Shown: one piece after another, positions 56,220 through 64,000 of the stretch
Position numbering within the stretch: position 1 is the first letter of the stretch
Layout of the letters: the number at the start of each line of letters is the position of its first letter
From: a bacterium
Lineage (GTDB): Bacteria > Zhuqueibacterota > Zhuqueibacteria > Residuimicrobiales > Krinioviventaceae
Assembly (NCBI GenBank): GCA_963675755.2
Contig: CAXXMD010000003.1
Span: 1,760,001 to 1,824,000, forward strand
Length of the DNA stretch: 64,000 nt
Reading direction: 5' to 3'
Notes under the pieces: model-generated
Told to the model about the DNA's origin: nothing
The model's database searches: none
What the model saw: the letters and a program-made list of their open reading frames with translations, nothing else
Program-made: the position numbers and the translations under genes

Positions 56220-57479
56220 TTATTGAAATTGTTTCCAGTCCACAGTGATTTTTGGAGGATTGGCAAAATCCTGCCAGTATTGCTCTGCCTGTTCTGCGGT
56301 GATCGTTCCATCGTAAACCAGCATGCGGTATTTTAATCCATAAGTATTACCGGGAACCAGGTTCCAGGTTTTATGACGAATAGGGCAGAATTCAAAATAC
56401 ATATCACCGCGGTCACCATTTGCATTGAGCGGCCATACGCGCATGGGCTCTGGGTGTTCACGGTTGGTGGGATGACTCATAAACAAGATACCGGATTTAC
56501 CACTCTGCGGCATTTCTCCGTTAACATTACACCAGCGCGCGCTTGTACCGTCTGCTTCTGCGCGGTCTTTAGCTTCAGAAGTGAGTACGGTACAGTTGTC
56601 TTTGGTCCAGTATTCCAGTGCGCGGTAGCCAATGCCACCACCATATCGGTAGGCAGTCAGTTCAACGGGCTTGTTTGTACAATTGAGCACGGTTGTCATG
56701 TCCCAGAGCCAAACATTGTTGTCCGGCGAAATGTTCCAGGCGCGAACATCCCACACTTCATTGATGGCAACCTCGGGGCCTGTCTCTGCTTTCAAGTCCA
56801 CATGTTCCTGACGGACTTTGAAGCCGGTATAGACGGAACCATCGGTGGTTGAGAGCACACCGGCAAAACGCACGGTTCCCAATCCGCGACCCAGATTCCA
56901 GAAATCCACTTCGCGTCCCTCAATATGGGTTTTGGTCCAGGGGTTCCAGATGCCTACATGGTGATAGTGGTCCGGCGGCTGGATGCGTGTCAGTTCCTGT
57001 CCGTTAGGTGTCCATAAAGGATGAATAAATCCGCTGCGGTTATACAAGGGGTCCACACCCGGGGGAGCGGGTTGTACAGCATGTCGATAGCTGAGAACAG
57101 GTGTGCCGTTTTGCCGTAGGACCAGATCGGTATCTGTTTCTTTACAAACCAGAGCGGGGGCGGTATATGATGAATCCGTATAGATCAATTCGTATGTGCG
57201 GGACTTTGAGGAGGATGAATTATCCAAAATCCACCACAATCGGGGCGTTTGCGCTGCTTCCACCTGACAGGGTACATTGATTTTGCCGGATTTGGTTTTT
57301 TCGATGAGTTTGAGTCGATACGCATCCAGCGGTACCGGCAGATTTTCCAGTGCAATGCTGACCGGAGTGTTGCTATGGGATTTTGATTTAGCGTCTACCT
57401 GTATAACGGCAAGGGTTTGCGCGTACACAAACACAGGCAGGCACAAGACAAGAATTACGCGATTTAAAATACGGATCAT
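56220..57479 (-). CDS. DUF6807 ('PmoA-family') secreted protein
   Basis: Motifs RSGFIHPLWTP, PPDHYHHVG, YGGGIGYR and FMSHPTN. Confidence 0.75.
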   Translation of the reverse strand: MIRILNRVILVLCLPVFVYAQTLAVIQVDAKSKSHSNTPVSIALENLPVPLDAYRLKLIEKTKSGKINVPCQVEAAQTPRLWWILDNSSSSKSRTYELIYTDSSYTAPALVCKETDTDLVLRQNGTPVLSYRHAVQPAPPGVDPLYNRSGFIHPLWTPNGQELTRIQPPDHYHHVGIWNPWTKTHIEGREVDFWNLGRGLGTVRFAGVLSTTDGSVYTGFKVRQEHVDLKAETGPEVAINEVWDVRAWNISPDNNVWLWDMTTVLNCTNKPVELTAYRYGGGIGYRALEYWTKDNCTVLTSEAKDRAEADGTSARWCNVNGEMPQSGKSGILFMSHPTNREHPEPMRVWPLNANGDRGDMYFEFCPIRHKTWNLVPGNTYGLKYRMLVYDGTITAEQAEQYWQDFANPPKITVDWKQFQ

Positions 57480-57597
57480 AATGCTCCTCTCGAAAGCAGA
57501 TATTGGATGGTTTGATTTATTATAATTAAATATCAGTCAATATTCAAGTAGAAAATGATACAAGGGTTTTTAGTTTTTTATTTAAAGAAGAACAAAT

Positions 57598-57846
57598 CTA
57601 TCGCATCCCTACGGGATGCCTGTTTCTGGTTGTCATGGTATCTACAGATATTGGGTCCCTGACGGGACCTTTGGATTGATGGAAGGATCAAAGAGCTCAC
57701 AATGTGGATTTAGATTGAATTACGGAATCAATCTGTTTCTTTGGTAGAATACTTGAAACCGGGATCGTTTGACGGGGGTCCCGTAGGGACCGGATATTTG
57801 TAGCCTATGCAAAAAAGCTAATCAGTGTCTCATAGGGACGTGAAGG
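57598..57846. repeat. REPIN/MITE-like unit 1 (249 bp)
   Basis: Left arm CTATCGCATCCCTACGGGATGC-N22-CTACAGATATTGGGTCCCTGACGGGACC; the right arm is its inverted copy (GGTCCCGTAGGGACCGGATATTTGTAG...). Confidence 0.85.
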
Positions 57847-57910
57847 AAATGGTTAAGGAAATGCTCAATATTAATGCATTTATGATATTTTGTTAATTAG
57901 GATATGTAGT

Positions 57911-58263
57911 CTATTGCATCCCTACGGGATGCCTGTTCTTAGTTTAGATGGTATCTACAAATATTGGGTCCCTGACGGGACCTCTGGATTGGTGAGATGA
58001 TCGATGATCTCACCATGTTGAATTAGATTGAATTAAAGGAACAACCCGGTTCTCTGGTTGAAAACATAAAGCTGGAATCGTTCGATGACGGCCCCTTTCG
58101 TGAGCCTTGATTTTGGAGGATGATCTACATTTATACAATGGGTATATATTGTATAAATTAATTAATTCGCTTAAAGTCGAAATATTATAACTGGTCCCGT
58201 AGGGACCGGATAGTTGTAGCTTTTGTCAGAAAACCAAATCAGCGTCCCATCGGGACGCGATAG
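57911..58263. repeat. REPIN/MITE-like unit 2 (353 bp, carries a 103-bp insertion)
   Basis: Same arms and core as unit 1; ends GCGTCCCATCGGGACGCGATAG. Confidence 0.85.
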
Positions 58264-58394
58264 AAAAGATCAGGAAATGCACATAATTTTTATATCCAAT
58301 GAAATTGGATCTATTGATAAAAAGTTTGCAAATTGGTTATTTTTTTGTAATATAAAATATTAATCCCAATTCAATAATATTACAGGGGTGTGAT

Positions 58395-60989
58395 ATGAAG
58401 CTGAACAAGGTAGTTCTTGCAGTAGTTTGGTGTATTTCAATAGCTTTTGCTGGTGAGCCTCAGATTGTAGTTCCTGATTTTCAGGTGAATGAAGCGGGGG
58501 GAGCTGGTAAATTGGACAAGTATAATCCCATGTTGAAACAAATAAATGATGATAGAATGATTTTGGTATGGGTAGATAAAAGATACGGGAGATTTGAAAA
58601 GATTTTTGGTCAGCTATATACATTGCAAGGCGATAAAATTGGTGCAAACCAACAATTAACATATATAGACAGCATTTATACTACTTCTTCTCCAGCAGTC
58701 ACTCCTGGTGAAAACGGGGAATTTCTTTTAACCTGGCAGGGAAATGATCATCATGGATATTTTGCGCAATTATTTGATAAAGACGCAAACCCGTTGGCTC
58801 CATATTTTTCAATTCATGAAGGAGAATATTCCAGATCTTTTTTTGATAATATTTGTGTCGATTATCATTCAAGATTTCATATTGTATGGAATAAAAATGC
58901 TGAAAATGATACATCGTTTGTCTTTATGACCACGCTTGATGAGAGCGGCACCAATAAAGAAAAAACTATTATATTAAAGAAATCTTTGAACCGGACTTTT
59001 TCTAATTTGACAATGAGTTATCATAAAAATGGAGAATTCCTGCTAACCTGTTGGGAGCCGGATAGTTTGGGATACATGCACCTGACATCACAAGTGTTTG
59101 ATACTAACGGAAACCCTGTTAATGAGCCTCAGAAATTATTAAAAACTGAAGGATTTTATTTTAAAACCAAATGTATTGATGTTGATGAGGGATTCGTTGT
59201 TCCTGTTTTTAAATTTAACGACAATAATTTTGCTAGACCAGAGTTTTTAAGAATTTCTTTGCAAGGGGAGTTAATAACAACTCCTTTAGATAGTGTTGGA
59301 CAAGAGGTGTCTGGTGTTAATGTGATTTCAAAAACAAACAACAATACATTTTATATAACCTGGCAAGAATCAGATTACAATAATATGAATTTTATCAAAA
59401 GTCAGGAATTCAGCGGTTCTTGTGAGGCTCTGGGCGATCCATTTGTATTGTATGAATCCGATTATGATCCGTTTAAAAACAGAGTTGTTTTAGGCAATGC
59501 AATTTATGTAAATAATCAAATAAATTTTTGCGTAACAAAACATATGGATTATAATTATGAATTATTTACTTACAACTATTCTTTATCAAATAATAAACTA
59601 GATGAAAATGAACCGGTTGATGATTTTATAGGATTCGCGTCTCAAAAGAATCCACGAGTTATGGTTGATGCGAACAAAGATTTTAGAGTGTTTTGGCGAG
59701 ATGATCGTTTTGAAAGAGCTAATTATGATATATTTGAGCAAGGTTTTAATATAAAAGGTGAAAGAAAAGGGAACAATTTAAACCTGACGCAAGGGTCTTC
59801 AATCTGTGGACAACAGAATATTTTCAATTTGAGCGATACTGGATTTTTAATGACATGGATTGAGAAAAAAGACGATACACATGTTATTTCAGTTCAACAA
59901 TATTCATCGAGTTTGGAGGCTGTGGGAAAGAAAATAGAATTAAAGGAAAATAATGTCTATTTAATAGGTGGTTGTCCTCAAATAGCTTCACTTCCAAAAG
60001 GTCCTAATATTGTTTGTTTTACTGAAAGAGGTGACATGAATGACTATACTTCTTTTCTATTGTTTGATAAACAGGGTAATAGTATTGGTGAAAAGGTGCA
60101 ATTAGATGATATGCCGTATCGTAATTCTGTTCATCCGTTTAATGATACAACGTTTATTGTGTTGGGTGAATGGGTGGATTGTTTTTTTCAAATGGTCTCG
60201 TCAAAGGGAGTATTAGGTATTAATGTGGATTTTGATGGTCAGGAAAATTTGTTTTTTAATCCTGTTGAAAAATATCTGTTGGGTTTTAGCTATAAAAATT
60301 TACAGATGATAATGCAACGTTTCAATGTTGATGGTAGTAAATTGGATTCTGCCAAAGTCACCTTTGATGAAATAGATGGTTATGAACCGGGTTTGCCCCG
60401 TGTGCTATTTGATAGTATAGGCAATTTTGTTGTTACATGGACCCAAGATAGTTTTAACATTAACAACTATCCTGTACCCTATTTGTGGGGTCAATACTTT
60501 AACAGGCAAGCTGAGCCAGTTGGATCACGTTTTCTTATTAAAGAGAATTTTTATTTTCAGGAATATGATTTAGCGTATGAAAATAATATATTATTTTTAA
60601 GCTGGGAGGGATTCAATGATGATCAATTTGATATGTATTCAGAAAATGATATCTGGGCCAGAATATTAGATCTGACTCCAGTTATTACATCTGTGGAAGA
60701 AAATAGTGTTGATTTACAACAACCGCATACTTTTCAGCTTTTACAAAACTATCCCAATCCCTTTAATCCGGTAACACAGATAAGGTATTCACTGGCTGAG
60801 GCAAGCCGGGTAAATCTGACAATTTATGATACGTTGGGCCGCAATGTGCGCACCCTAATTGACGCGCGTCAATCGGCGGGATACCATAATGTGGATGTAG
60901 ACGCGGGCAAGCTGCCAAGCGGGGTGTATTTTTACAAACTGCAATGCGGCAGCCAGGTGCAAACCCGCAAGATGCTGTTGTTGAGATAG
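58395..60989 (+). CDS. Secreted beta-rich repeat protein with T9SS-type-A-like tail
   Basis: Signal peptide, repeats of type P.V....G.F.V.W.D.R....IF.Q.F...G, and tail NYPNPFNP...SGVYFY...RKMLLLR. Confidence 0.8.
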   Translation: MKLNKVVLAVVWCISIAFAGEPQIVVPDFQVNEAGGAGKLDKYNPMLKQINDDRMILVWVDKRYGRFEKIFGQLYTLQGDKIGANQQLTYIDSIYTTSSPAVTPGENGEFLLTWQGNDHHGYFAQLFDKDANPLAPYFSIHEGEYSRSFFDNICVDYHSRFHIVWNKNAENDTSFVFMTTLDESGTNKEKTIILKKSLNRTFSNLTMSYHKNGEFLLTCWEPDSLGYMHLTSQVFDTNGNPVNEPQKLLKTEGFYFKTKCIDVDEGFVVPVFKFNDNNFARPEFLRISLQGELITTPLDSVGQEVSGVNVISKTNNNTFYITWQESDYNNMNFIKSQEFSGSCEALGDPFVLYESDYDPFKNRVVLGNAIYVNNQINFCVTKHMDYNYELFTYNYSLSNNKLDENEPVDDFIGFASQKNPRVMVDANKDFRVFWRDDRFERANYDIFEQGFNIKGERKGNNLNLTQGSSICGQQNIFNLSDTGFLMTWIEKKDDTHVISVQQYSSSLEAVGKKIELKENNVYLIGGCPQIASLPKGPNIVCFTERGDMNDYTSFLLFDKQGNSIGEKVQLDDMPYRNSVHPFNDTTFIVLGEWVDCFFQMVSSKGVLGINVDFDGQENLFFNPVEKYLLGFSYKNLQMIMQRFNVDGSKLDSAKVTFDEIDGYEPGLPRVLFDSIGNFVVTWTQDSFNINNYPVPYLWGQYFNRQAEPVGSRFLIKENFYFQEYDLAYENNILFLSWEGFNDDQFDMYSENDIWARILDLTPVITSVEENSVDLQQPHTFQLLQNYPNPFNPVTQIRYSLAEASRVNLTIYDTLGRNVRTLIDARQSAGYHNVDVDAGKLPSGVYFYKLQCGSQVQTRKMLLLR

Positions 60990-60993
60990 TGTA

Positions 60994-61244
60994 CTATTGC
61001 ATCCCTACGGGATGCCAGTTCCAGGTTGTCATGGTATCTATAAATATTGGGTCCCTGACGGGACCTTTGGATTGGTGGGATGATCAAAGATCTCACAATG
61101 TGGATATAGATTGAATTACGGAATCAATCCGTTTCTTTGGTTGAATCTAATAAATCGGAATTATTCTAGGGCGGTCCCGTAGGGACGGGATATTTGTAGC
61201 CAATGCCATAATAAACAAATCAGCGTCCCATGGGGACGCGATGG
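60994..61244. repeat. REPIN/MITE-like unit 3 (251 bp)
   Basis: Direct repeat of unit 1, beginning just 4 nt after the stop codon of 58395-60989. Confidence 0.85.
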
Positions 61245-61308
61245 AAATGGTTAAGGAAGTGCTCAATATTAATGCATTTATGATATTTTGTTAATTAAGA
61301 TATGTAGT

Positions 61309-61558
61309 CTTTTGCATCTCTACGGAATGCCTGTCCTTAGTTTTGATGGTATCTACAAATATTGGGTCCCTGACGGGCCCCCTGGATTGGTGGGATGAGC
61401 GATGATCTCACCATGTTGAATTAGATTGAATTAAAGAAACAATCCAGTTTTTTGGTTAAATCCTTGAAACCGGATTCGTTTGACGAAGGTCCCCGCAGGG
61501 ACCGGATAGTTGTAGCCTATGTCAGAAAACAAATCAGCGTCCCATCGGGACGCGATAG
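61309..61558. repeat. REPIN/MITE-like unit 4 (250 bp)
   Basis: Direct repeat of unit 2 without the insertion; ends 61 bp before tnpA. Confidence 0.85.
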
Positions 61559-61619
61559 AAATTATAATAAATTTTTAAAAATCCTGGTGTTTGATGAAAA
61601 TTATATGGGGGTGTTAATT

Positions 61620-62081
61620 ATGGCCAATACGTTTACTCAAATCTATCTGCAATTGGTTTTTGCCGTACAAAACCGGATGTCACTAATTCAGGATTCCTGG
61701 AAAGATGAATTATACAAATATATTACAGGAATTGTACAAAATCAGGGACACAAATTGATAGCCATCAATGGGATACCTGACCATTTACACCTGTTGATTG
61801 GATATAATCCAAATCAAAAAATACCGGATATGCTTCAGGACATCAAAGGTTCTTCATCTACATGGATTAATGAAAAAGGTTTTTTAAAAGGAAAATTCAA
61901 TTGGCAGTCGGGTTATGGCGCTTTTTCCTATTCCCGTTCACAAATTAATGATGTAATAAATTATATAAACGATCAGCAGCAACACCATGCAAAGTTATCT
62001 TTTCATCAGGAATATATTCAATTTTTGAAATTATTTGATATATCTTTTGATGAAAAGTATATATTTCAAGAGGTCAAATAA
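61620..62081 (+). CDS. tnpA: IS200/IS605-family HUH (Y1) transposase TnpA, REP-associated type
   Basis: HUH motif PDHLHLL, KGSSS, WQSGYGAFS and catalytic Tyr in YINDQ; 153 aa from ATG 61620; no tnpB follows. Confidence 0.92.
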   Translation: MANTFTQIYLQLVFAVQNRMSLIQDSWKDELYKYITGIVQNQGHKLIAINGIPDHLHLLIGYNPNQKIPDMLQDIKGSSSTWINEKGFLKGKFNWQSGYGAFSYSRSQINDVINYINDQQQHHAKLSFHQEYIQFLKLFDISFDEKYIFQEVK

Positions 62082-62174
62082 ATAGTTCAGCGAATACCCT
62101 CCCAAAAAAGATTGTTTTATTTTTCAAGATAATCATTAAATTATGGTTAAAATAACTTAATCATGAGGGGTATC

Positions 62175-62978
62175 ATGAAAACAAAATTTGTATTTGTACT
62201 GGTGTTTATCTCTTCGCTGTCATTTGCGCAGGGATTGCCAATTCTGGAAAATTTAGAGTTACGTGCAGGTCTTGATTATGAATTCGGCATGTTTAATCAT
62301 AATCCTGAAGCCCTTGTGGAATGGGAAGGCAATCCCTTTAGCGGTTCGGATGTGAATCCTGAGCAGAATTTCAGTCCTACCTACATGTTTAAACCGTGGG
62401 TATATGTAAAAATTTCGCGAGTGGGTATCGGGTTTTCCGAATTTGGCAACAAGCTGTTCGACTCGGTCGGTGCCGCATCAAAAACCGAAATGGAATATAA
62501 ATCCGGCAAGTCTTTTGGTGATGTTGAAGGTACAACCGGTAATACCGAAATCGCTCTAGATTGGTATATTCAGGAATCATTGGCGTTGACCGCTACCTAT
62601 TTGAATATGCGATATGATGCAGAGCCCGCGGACCCAAATGGAGGCAGTGCGCTTTTGAAACGTGCCGTATTCAGCATGACTGGTAATGGTGTGGGTATAG
62701 GAATTAAAACCAATAATGTAATTAATCGCAGATATGCTTTGCGTATGATGTTCATGTACTATCCAACTCTGAGCAGTGAATATGTTATTGATGATAACGA
62801 GGATGACAAGCAGTCATTTGACAGCTATATCTATGCTACACGGGTGAATGTAGACCGCAAGCTGATTAATGGATTGTGGGCAACCGTAGGACTGGACTGG
62901 ATCCATTCATCAGATAATGATAAATTTGTTCGCAATACCCGATTGATGTTAGATGCAGGAGTATATGTAGCGTTTTAA
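62175..62978 (+). CDS. Putative outer-membrane beta-barrel protein (third, diverged paralogue of 47181/47992)
   Basis: Shares AQ.LPIL, W..NPF.S.VNPEQ, FSE.GN.LFD, YYP.L and LW.T.G motifs; terminal Phe; GAGGGG RBS before ATG 62175. Confidence 0.65.
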   Translation: MKTKFVFVLVFISSLSFAQGLPILENLELRAGLDYEFGMFNHNPEALVEWEGNPFSGSDVNPEQNFSPTYMFKPWVYVKISRVGIGFSEFGNKLFDSVGAASKTEMEYKSGKSFGDVEGTTGNTEIALDWYIQESLALTATYLNMRYDAEPADPNGGSALLKRAVFSMTGNGVGIGIKTNNVINRRYALRMMFMYYPTLSSEYVIDDNEDDKQSFDSYIYATRVNVDRKLINGLWATVGLDWIHSSDNDKFVRNTRLMLDAGVYVAF

Positions 62979-62998: not shown

Positions 62999-63058
62999 AA
63001 TCCTGGTTACCTTGAATGATTTGAGATTTTTTTCAGTAACCGGGATTTATCTTTTTTT
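62999..63058 (+). terminator. Possible terminator hairpin
   Basis: AATCCTGGTTAC/GTAACCGGGATT stem with a long loop, followed by a T-tract. Confidence 0.4.
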
Positions 63059-63137
63059 GGGGGGAATCATGGGAAGCTATTCTATGGATTCTTTCAAAAG
63101 TGATCAGGGTTTTCAAAAATATGAAAGGGGTTTAAAA

Positions 63138-64000
63138 ATGGTATATCGAACCGGCCGATGGATTGTATTGTTTATCCTTTTTATTTCAAGTATTCAGTTA
63201 AAAGCCCAGTATTTAACTGAGCAATGGAGTTTTGCAGCTTTCCATACACCCATTGGTTTGCCGAATATCTGCTGTGCTGATCTGAATGATGATGGGAAAC
63301 AAGAGATAGTATTGGGACATTCTTTTGGAAGTCGCATAACTATTCTTGAATATCAAAATGGTGATTATGTTCCAATCTGGAATAGCCGTATTTTCAATGC
63401 GACTACTTTATATGCCGCGAGTTACCTAAATGTATTGGATATTGATAATGACAGTGAGAATGAGCTTGTAATTGTATTTGAAAATGGAGTCATTGAGATA
63501 TATGATGGTAAAACGTTAGAGATTGAATCATCGTTTCAGCAGGAAAAGTTTCCTGTAAAAGAATGCTGTATCAGTGATGTTGATAATGACGGGACCCAGG
63601 AAATTCTCATGTTTTTGTTTTATGACTTGTTGATCTATGATGCAGAGACTTTTGACTGCGAATGGGATTCCACTTTTAATTACCATTCCGATATCAAAGT
63701 AGGAGATATTGACGGAGATGGGGAAAATGAAATCGTATTAGGTGCAGGTAAGGTTTTAAACGGCAAGACTCACAAGGTCGAATGGAACTCTATGGTTGCA
63801 TTTGGAGAAGATATTGAACTGGCAGACATAGACCAGGATGGCATTGATGAAATAGTGGGTAGAAAGGATTATTTTAATGTGTTTGCATTTGACGGTCAAA
63901 GCCATGATGTTTTATGGCAATTGTCAACAGAATATGATATGAGATCACTTGCGGTTACCGATTTTGAAAATGACGGGATTTTGGAAATTTTATTGGGCCA
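63138..64000 (+). CDS. Secreted FG-GAP/VCBS-repeat protein, 3'-truncated by window edge (absent from ORF track)
   Basis: Open frame MVYRTGRWIVLFILF... with DxDxDG repeats: DLNDDGKQEIV, DIDNDSENELV, DVDNDGTQEIL, DIDGDGENEIV, DIDQDGIDEIV and DFENDGILEIL. Confidence 0.8.
   Translation, partial: MVYRTGRWIVLFILFISSIQLKAQYLTEQWSFAAFHTPIGLPNICCADLNDDGKQEIVLGHSFGSRITILEYQNGDYVPIWNSRIFNATTLYAASYLNVLDIDNDSENELVIVFENGVIEIYDGKTLEIESSFQQEKFPVKECCISDVDNDGTQEILMFLFYDLLIYDAETFDCEWDSTFNYHSDIKVGDIDGDGENEIVLGAGKVLNGKTHKVEWNSMVAFGEDIELADIDQDGIDEIVGRKDYFNVFAFDGQSHDVLWQLSTEYDMRSLAVTDFENDGILEILLG

Follow-up and report, generated by a model that had tools for sequence, protein, structure and literature searches.

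A secreted-protein gene enclosed by sister REPIN-like doublets beside a single-copy Y1 nuclease gene

How does a single gene for a secreted protein come to lie between two copies of a long hairpin repeat, next to a lone gene for an HUH/Y1 nuclease? The locus that raises this question occupies positions 57,598 to 62,081 of a stretch of 64,000 nucleotides (nt), referred to here as the window, which corresponds to C3:1760001-1824000 of genome G000 (6.48 Mb in 3 contigs, 98% complete). Its repeats resemble REPINs (repetitive extragenic palindromic, or REP, doublets forming hairpins), the nuclease gene is a tnpA, and the enclosed gene will be called the cargo gene. We describe the anatomy of the locus, the repeat that is cognate to the nuclease, the absence of the cargo gene from a sister species of the same genus (G001; flanking genes 89-91% identical), and the hybrid single repeats found there. 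We consider it probable, if far from certain, that an array resembling the REPtron of Escherichia coli took in the gene, and that the gene can leave by recombination between the sister doublets, as an occasional by-product and not as the work of a programmed cassette system.

The repeats form two blocks, A and B, each built as unit-linker-unit. As the original prediction had it, the blocks are direct repeats (508/583 identical columns, 87%, in a global alignment of 57590-58275 against 60985-61570) with linkers identical at 62/64 positions; its unit length of ~250 bp holds for A1, B1 and B2, whereas A2 is 352 nt long and holds ~103 extra nt. Homology between A and B begins at the CTAT foot of the first hairpin (57598/60994) and stops just past the last hairpin (~58263/61558). 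The full units and the linker have no further match anywhere in the 6.48-Mb genome, which marks A and B as sister copies of a single local doublet and not as the products of independent insertion. Given the 13.5% divergence of the units, the linker identity exceeds expectation (binomial P=0.006), a pattern that fits either conversion, at a single crossover, or constraint. Unit B1 folds with a z-score of -4.3 and A1 with -3.3 (0/200 shuffles equally good). Between the blocks lies one open reading frame (ORF) of 864 amino acids (aa), and the only other ORF of at least 80 aa is a 100-aa opposite-strand frame inside the cargo gene. Block B starts 4 nt after the cargo stop codon, and the ATG of tnpA (61620) lies 61 nt after B, both spacings as predicted. 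The flank to the right of A2 resembles the start of the linker, with a score reached by 4/2000 shuffles, which suggests that the gene interrupts a formerly longer array. The features are as follows.

56220..57479, minus strand: gene for a DUF6807 protein (419 aa; PF14100), left flank and conserved anchor; syntenic in G001, 1136/1260 nt identical.
57598..57845, plus strand: unit A1, REPIN-like, type 1; arms at 57596-57674 (plus) and 57778-57843 (minus) around a spacer; 225-228/248 identical to units D1/D2 of G001, 211/248 to B1.
57847..57910, plus strand: linker A, 64 nt, 62/64 identical to linker B.
57912..58263, plus strand: unit A2, type 2, 352 nt with the ~103 extra nt in the spacer; arms at 57910-57987 (plus) and 58189-58265 (minus); 218/248 identical to B2.
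58262..58301, plus strand: flank resembling the linker start (repeat family D9), a remnant suggesting that the array once continued.
58395..60989, plus strand: bracketed cargo gene, 864 aa, with a signal-peptide-like N-terminus, probable tandem β-propellers and a type IX secretion system (T9SS) type A sorting tail.
60831..60989, plus strand: GC-rich 3' end of the cargo gene (GC at third codon positions, GC3, of 0.68 vs 0.27 in the body).
60994..61243, plus strand: unit B1, type 1; arms at 60992-61070 (plus) and 61174-61245 (minus).
61245..61308, plus strand: linker B, 64 nt, 62/64 identical to linker A.
61310..61558, plus strand: unit B2, type 2; arms at 61309-61385 (plus) and 61486-61560 (minus), the last oriented like the arm usually found upstream of tnpA.
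61620..62081, plus strand: tnpA, encoding a 153-aa HUH/Y1 nuclease with DHLH, WQ and YINDQQQHH; single copy, no tnpB, no arm downstream.
62163..62978, plus strand: right flank gene, 271 aa, no family, conserved anchor; syntenic in G001, 726/816 nt identical.

Each ~250-bp unit consists of two inverted arms of ~75 nt around a spacer. An arm reads hairpin 1, ~25 variable nt, a CTA(C/T)AAATAT box and hairpin 2, both hairpins having the form CCC-loop-GGG. Across 478 distinct arms from loci of tnpA homologues, the stem positions beside the CCC/GGG core pair more often than expected for independent columns; at the second pair of hairpin 2, 358/387 are paired against 247 expected (284 G-C and 74 A-T; relatedness of the arms is not corrected for). 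The CTA(C/T) box, GTAG/ATAG on the other strand, sits ~10 nt from one hairpin and ~20 nt from the other, whereas the GT[AG]G typical of REP-associated tyrosine transposases (RAYTs) sits at the foot. Run against G000, an iterated arm profile picks out 36 arms, grouped in 15 clusters at 13 sites; the reversed genome yields 0. All are intergenic, the sole overlap with an ORF of at least 150 aa being with an upstream extension of tnpA's own frame. A strict arm pattern finds 30 arms in G000 and 9 in G001, where tnpA carries 3 stops, one of them at the catalytic Tyr codon; this one comparison fits decay of the repeats after loss of the enzyme. A search against Rfam gave 2 weak matches, none at gathering score. 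Promoter-like sites are at chance level (26 vs 20.2 +/- 5.2), and terminator-like sites are above it (12 vs 2.7) because of the hairpins.

The tnpA product scores 93 bits against PF01797 and 65.8 bits against NF033573 (transpos_IS200; cut-off 55), but 28.7 bits against the REP-associated model NF047646 (REP_Tyr_transpos; cut-off 80), and its relatives in the PDB are IS200/IS605 transposases. The description of the gene as intact, with HLH and YxxxQ motifs (DHLH, YINDQQQHH here) and without tnpB, proved correct; the next gene is the unrelated 271-aa ORF. The enzyme shares with TnpA-Y1 subclass 1.2 the motif YINDQQQHH, the WQ, the length (153 aa vs ~148 aa), the low copy number and the lack of tnpB, while the hydrophobic residue of its DHLH lies outside the consensus DH[IV]H. 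The YxxxNP motif and the REP_Tyr_transpos profile that define class 2 RAYTs are both absent. It is RAYT-like in that a single-copy gene is flanked by cognate palindromes which are also dispersed and extragenic. An insertion sequence (IS) would occur in multiple near-identical copies with new insertion sites; here tblastn finds one match in G000, and the gene occupies the same site in G000 and G001. Three further Y1 genes of G000 (L002, L003 and L004) carry class 2 motifs (Y-I-H-x-N-P) and are beyond the reach of tblastn from this tnpA.

Homologues of tnpA come from Bacteroidota, Ignavibacteria, KSB1, Calditrichaceae and a few other groups. We assembled a discovery set of 85 loci (79/80 homologue loci, one duplicate being dropped, and 6/9 further regions) and a replication set of 79 (100 new loci minus 21 duplicates). 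The motif Y-x-x-x-Q-x-x-HH is present in 162/164 homologues and YxxxNP in 0. Arms lie within 1 kb of tnpA at 84/85 discovery and 73/79 replication loci, that is, beside 157/164 homologues, and at 0 reversed controls, which bears out the proposal that the repeats are REP/REPIN-like and belong to the adjacent nuclease. At the 140 loci with room on both sides, an upstream arm is found at 112, a downstream arm at 110 and both at 99; the usual layout is an arm just upstream of tnpA and an inverted arm just past its stop, and G000 has the upstream arm alone. The two-hairpin arm is the cognate repeat of a nuclease with subclass 1.2 motifs, a subclass published as REP-less: Table 1 of Quentin, Siguier, Chandler and Fichant (2018, PMC6006769) gives REP as 'no' and HuH as DH[IV]H. 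Gene-free tandem arrays are common at homologue loci (L036, L142, L149, L161), as are tandem duplications at arms (for example at G000 C3:684 kb, 342/364 identical). At L141:7581-9403, tnpA and its arms are tandemly duplicated (98% over 1080 nt, period ~745). At L162:6507-11473, a 208-aa gene and its repeat flanks are duplicated (99% over 1191 nt), with one copy having lost tnpA from between its arms and a 350-aa fn3 gene lying between the copies.

At the same site G001 has, in order, the DUF6807 gene, a gene for a PAS histidine kinase of 358 aa, a single doublet (D), tnpA and the 271-aa gene; the cargo gene is absent. The empty site anticipated by the original prediction, a single doublet followed by tnpA, therefore exists in part, since the kinase gene lies directly upstream of the doublet and the site is not cleanly empty. 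The best match of the kinase in G000 is only 36% identical, and its insert (L035:10538-11614) ends within a few nt of the arm's outer foot. Over 248 ungapped columns, A1 agrees with D1/D2 at 225-228 positions and with B1 at 211, A2 and B2 agreeing at 218. The D units fall with A1 at bootstrap 96, and when the type 2 units serve as outgroup 8 informative sites back this grouping, vs 0 and 0-1 for the alternatives; the 3' flank of D runs into tnpA like that of B2. Doublet D thus has an A-like body and B's 3' flank. On these alignments, either both doublets predate the species split and G001 lost A2-cargo-B1, or B1 and A2 entered together with the cargo gene from a more distant lineage by a single crossover; the change may be a loss in G001 or a gain in G000. 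Beyond the right flank gene, turnover next door occurs without an arm: an FG-GAP-repeat gene at 63012-64000 of the window (1055 aa in the genome) is replaced in G001 by a 183-aa gene.

A second site tells a similar story. At C3:741-743 kb of G000, a repeat X and a tandem pair Y1-Y2 (226-241/259 identical) flank two genes without a family assignment and with 24-25% GC; one of these genes stops inside the end of X. G001 has a single copy, Z, with X's left flank and Y2's right flank. The informative sites of Z favour X over Y2 by 12 to 4 up to column 170, and Y2 over X by 9 to 0 from column 220 into the flank (Fisher p=0.0005 for the switch; p=0.036 on the repeat body alone); judged by this pattern of sites, Z is the signature of one crossover inside the repeat. 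From the one-doublet state at the first site and the hybrid single repeat at the second, it follows that repeat-bounded gene gain or loss happened twice, and the alignments make homologous recombination between the repeats its likely route. The proposal that the doublets serve as recombination sites, via TnpA or RecA, is in this respect supported for homologous recombination and not for a TnpA-driven capture system. Just beyond Z, G001 carries other AT-rich genes and an IS-like ORF, and the second site is on that account a general hotspot with several repeat families. In L059:3900-7300 (G000 C3:741-744 kb), the arms are intermingled with short palindromic repeats of at least three further families; C3:481 kb and 2473 kb show comparable mixtures.

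The cargo gene has a GC content of 34.9%, the 9th percentile of 2790 ORFs of at least 300 aa. The prediction of one enclosed AT-rich gene is right as to the single gene, but the AT-richness is only moderate and gives way to GC-rich sequence over the final 52 codons (change point at codon 812, 2dLL 36). A GC3 shift above 0.25 is also found in 8/86 AT-rich-bodied genes of this genome that have a sorting tail. The cargo is therefore a mosaic gene of a kind seen in non-REP genes too, and we rejected the GC-rich tail as a REP-specific sign. It occurs once in G000, and its tail DNA has no close paralogue in that genome. The tail matches PF18962/TIGR04183 at residues 786-861 (T9SS type A sorting), and since the full-length query returned sorting-tail matches only, we repeated the search for relatives without it. 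The best relatives of the body are 19-24% identical and include proteins built of a ~57-residue repeat; the best homologue is named KSB1. A predicted model is all-β (predicted local distance difference test, pLDDT, 70; predicted template-modelling score, pTM, 0.50). Its best Foldseek rows are mostly ribosome-assembly and ciliary chains, with template-modelling (TM) scores mostly of 0.2-0.4. The nearest solved chains are what we take to be double WD40 propellers. The cargo protein probably contains tandem β-propellers, and a surface or secreted binding protein is its likely role. The ESM Atlas offers unnamed clusters (0.93) and BNR-type families (<0.9), as leads only. No orthologue was found in G001 or in 39 other relatives (the best match in G001 is 31% identical over ~160 aa). 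Elsewhere in G000, three adjacent secreted-protein genes at C3:3580271-3586004 have AT-rich bodies and GC-rich sorting tails (GC3 shift 0.33-0.45), which suggests tail-anchored domain swapping.

The history that we favour would run as follows. By analogy with TnpA-REP of E. coli, the Y1 nuclease would keep and amplify its own two-hairpin arms beside tnpA, and units amplified there would build up in tandem at a higher order, as 1-linker-2-(linker)-1-linker-2. Into the middle of such an array a secreted-protein gene of foreign appearance would have landed, presumably leaving two 565-bp copies as direct repeats on its flanks. A single crossover between the copies, probably by homologous recombination, would drop the gene, or would bring it in from a circle of a related lineage. 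For the first entry, cutting of the E. coli type followed by strand transfer offers a possible route; the available text of Ton-Hoang (2012, PMC3333891) reports that TnpA-REP cleaves in linkers and >400 nt from REP, and that it carries out strand transfer.

Several observations weigh against this history. Doublet D is not a simple descendant of the G000 doublets: D1 and D2 are both type 1 (241/248 identical), the D linker is unlike those of G000, and the PAS kinase gene lies upstream. There is one close relative only (~90% nt identity), so direction and timing rest on two genomes. Control DNA of 373 kb contains 24 breaks of at least 500 nt between G000 and G001, implying that gene turnover is frequent anyway. 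A microhomology between the 3' end of the cargo gene and the end of the linker, good by eye, was ruled out as not significant (191/2000 shuffles and 22/245 ends of tail genes score as well). Neither a circle nor a joint skipping the cargo (A-B), both called for by the original prediction, is listed among the contigs of three sequencing runs, although contigs drop rare variants. In E. coli, according to the accessible part of PMC1428787, REPs are not preferred at amplification junctions.

An unlikely alternative is local hopping: the cargo gene would already have been in place upstream of the doublet beside tnpA, a second doublet copied from it would have landed on the far side of the gene, making the bracket incidental, and G001 would have lost the gene later, as can befall any dispensable gene between direct repeats. 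Elsewhere, clearly resident genes do lie between repeats. Multi-gene brackets at the homologue loci are mostly a resident type I-C cas5-cas8c-cas7 block (five loci), and cas4 is bracketed in one. For one bracketed radical-SAM gene (G052, L296), the congener G055 keeps the synteny but has no outer arm; another bracketed gene shares its 5' part with a congener. Moreover, a G001 REPIN lies ~9 kb from a G000 one, at a position that is empty in G000, and 8 of the 12 other G000 sites have no adjoining G000-specific gene. Hopping sits less well with a cargo gene that has no orthologue in 40 relatives and is absent beside 6/6 DUF6807 orthologue loci examined (~1.5 kb of flank only), with the linker-like flank after A2, which suggests an interrupted array and not a clean two-ended insertion, and with the fact that both bracketed G000 loads are AT-rich and missing at the matching G001 site. 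As to the cas genes themselves, type I-C cas7 lies 0.2-2.9 kb from a subclass 1.2 tnpA in 10/164 loci (L102, L103, L107, L124, L216, L231, L243, L260, L271, L289). In L103, L216, L260, L271 and L289 arms also split the cas operon before cas5, and the order in L103 is cas3-like gene, arms, cas5-8c-7, arms, tnpA, arm, cas4-cas1-like genes. Identities of 77-88% among those compared mean that the cas-linked tnpA genes may be one lineage.

We regard as quite unlikely a programmed cassette or composite transposon, in which TnpA would cut at the arm feet to capture, excise and reinsert genes and the doublets would be its recombination sites. Some junctions have the expected look: the A/B homology ends exactly at the outer arm feet, the cargo stop is 4 nt from an arm, a second-site gene stops inside the repeat end, and the G001 kinase insert ends near an arm foot. 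At two more G000 sites, 481 and 2702 kb, G001 lacks both the REPIN and an AT-rich gene (1611 vs 82 nt and 1220 vs 29 nt), but these one-sided indels end ~25-240 nt from the arms. In the discovery set, 5/6 single-gene brackets hold an AT-rich gene, against 47/511 other genes (p=0.003, post hoc), and 6/6 are co-directional with tnpA. With criteria fixed beforehand, the replication brackets gave 0/3 and 2/3, respectively (low power; one of the three genes is cas4), and we no longer count AT-richness as a general mark of capture; pooling both sets (5/9 vs 75/723, p=0.001) brings in the post hoc one and is not to be relied on. AT-richness is also no commoner among genes that adjoin the repeat-tnpA cluster on one side only (14/129 vs 47/511; 8/78 vs 28/212), and co-directionality of bracketed genes is no higher than that of these neighbours (8/9 vs 161/207, p=0.69).

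Gene brackets are also rare. Single-gene brackets occur at 9 of 103 usable loci (6 in 68 discovery, 3 in 35 replication), and no cassette array was found among the 164 homologue loci, each site having one load. The genome-wide search that the original prediction called for found arms at 13 sites in G000, of which only 2 bracket genes, the full unit itself being unmatched elsewhere. Background for the other sites came from 20 evenly spaced 20-kb G001 stretches, where 18/286 G000 genes are specific and 12/65 gaps of at least 150 nt have such a neighbour. A G000-specific neighbour is present at 4 of the 12 (481 kb, 741 kb, 2702 kb and, with a weak single arm, 3330 kb), and enrichment was rejected (4/12 vs 12/65, Fisher p=0.26; 5/13 including the present site, p=0.14). 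The integron-like or composite-transposon system first proposed is not supported by this record of two bracketing sites, a single-copy tnpA, rare brackets that include resident operons, no array and no A-B joint listed. In place of a tyrosine integrase and a gene-attC array, the locus has an HUH/Y1 enzyme and one load; and in place of a passenger at more than one site, or IS flanks, it has a cargo and doublet that occur once and repeats that encode no transposase. Within one REPIN spacer (G000 C3:2113990-2114356, L061) we also noted a different multicopy element of ~370 nt, which is absent there in G001 and has copies elsewhere in that genome.

A bolder version must count as a long shot, namely a slow gene-capture platform in which the subclass 1.2 enzyme would nick single-stranded DNA at arm feet or linkers and join foreign DNA to it, after which the direct repeats would excise, amplify and swap secreted-protein genes. 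If true, integron cassettes would have an HUH-driven counterpart, and the persistence of REP-RAYT-like systems would be explained by a benefit to the host.

The sequencing runs bear mainly on the assembly. In run X1, copy-specific pieces with 0 other letters bridge the left flank to A1 and the cargo gene to B1; at the ends of A2 and B2 there are 27-nt overlaps only. Two listed joints (sides of 44 and 22 nt) do not touch the repeats, and no RNA run was listed with this sequence. Contig depth over the cargo gene (10.6 vs 6.6/7.8 in X1; 7.1 vs 8.1/7.6 in X2) gives no verdict on amplification, and ten other letters in X2 at 61298-61399 look, by eye, like the A copy laid on B. That the assembler made the second doublet is very improbable indeed: in its favour, the run contigs are interrupted at the repeats and the best runs may represent the source sample; against it, A and B are 13% divergent, a 103-nt insertion sets them apart, the X1 contigs are copy-specific, and G001 has an orthologue of A1 in particular.

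It is a standing question why single-copy Y1 nucleases and their repeats are kept by bacteria. The lineage-specific genes bounded by sister repeat copies at two sites, each facing a one-copy allele in G001, supply concrete comparative evidence that REP-like arrays can act as points where genes go in and out, one allele being a clear crossover hybrid, and they name the exact substrates (arm, linker and enzyme) for a cleavage and strand-transfer assay in a subclass published as repeat-less. The effect looks occasional, not systematic, and recombination between direct repeats is an ordinary mechanism, so the surprise is limited.

Integrons combine a tyrosine integrase, attI and an array of gene-attC cassettes. 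The present locus is like an integron cassette in that a folded single-strand site comes shortly after a gene and a recombinase-like gene lies near, and unlike it in having no tyrosine integrase, attI or cassette array (no profile was used for the sites) and one load per site. It shares with composite transposons the direct repeats around a passenger gene, but its repeats encode no transposase and the unit occurs once. Shyamala (1990) and Kofoid (2003) are said to have described REP copies as points where duplications and excisions are joined. Here the shared sequence is 250-565 bp long and belongs to sister copies specific to one locus, and what results is that genes are present in one species and absent from the other.

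Among Y1 enzymes, the likeness to subclass 1.2 as presented in the available sections of PMC6006769 (~150 aa, WQ, Y-x-x-x-Q-x-x-HH, low copy, no tnpB, homologues mostly Bacteroidota-related) is broken by the DHLH and by the cognate arm beside nearly every homologue. The same clade may be IS200 Group 3, called 'RAYT-like' by Bertels, Gallie and Rainey (2017, PMC5581495), which has no duplicates, none on plasmids and abundant flanking 16-mers; the accessible text describes no gene bracketing for it. With the E. coli REPtron/REP-BIME (bacterial interspersed mosaic element; PMC3333891) and REPIN-RAYT systems (bioRxiv 10.1101/2021.07.10.451892), as far as the available texts describe them, the locus shares a single-copy Y1 gene, cognate flanking and dispersed hairpins, paired inverted units, tandem amplification, and fewer repeats where the gene is dead (here G001). 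It differs in its class 1 motif (YxxxQ, not YxxxNP), with NF047646 far under its cut-off, in its two-hairpin ~75-nt arm, in having 36 arms and not hundreds, and in the 2.6-kb gene inside the array. The E. coli REPtron locus, in the same partial sources, is itself a turnover site, by precise loss of tnpA or replacement by hicAB.

Other accounts, in the portions available, report no circles from REP regions of E. coli (bioRxiv 2024.07.17.603846) and describe REPs as marking stable core DNA and as seldom found where the DNA is strain-specific (PMC3390384). A literature search over titles and abstract beginnings, mostly outside subscription journals, gave nothing on gene-carrying REP doublets or on REPs of subclass 1.2, and a REPIN review uses the words 'cargo' and 'composite' 0 times. 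REP-REP recombination and turnover of the E. coli REPtron site are already known; to them the present genome adds two sites at which genes bounded by repeats were gained or lost, both matched by a single-copy allele in G001.

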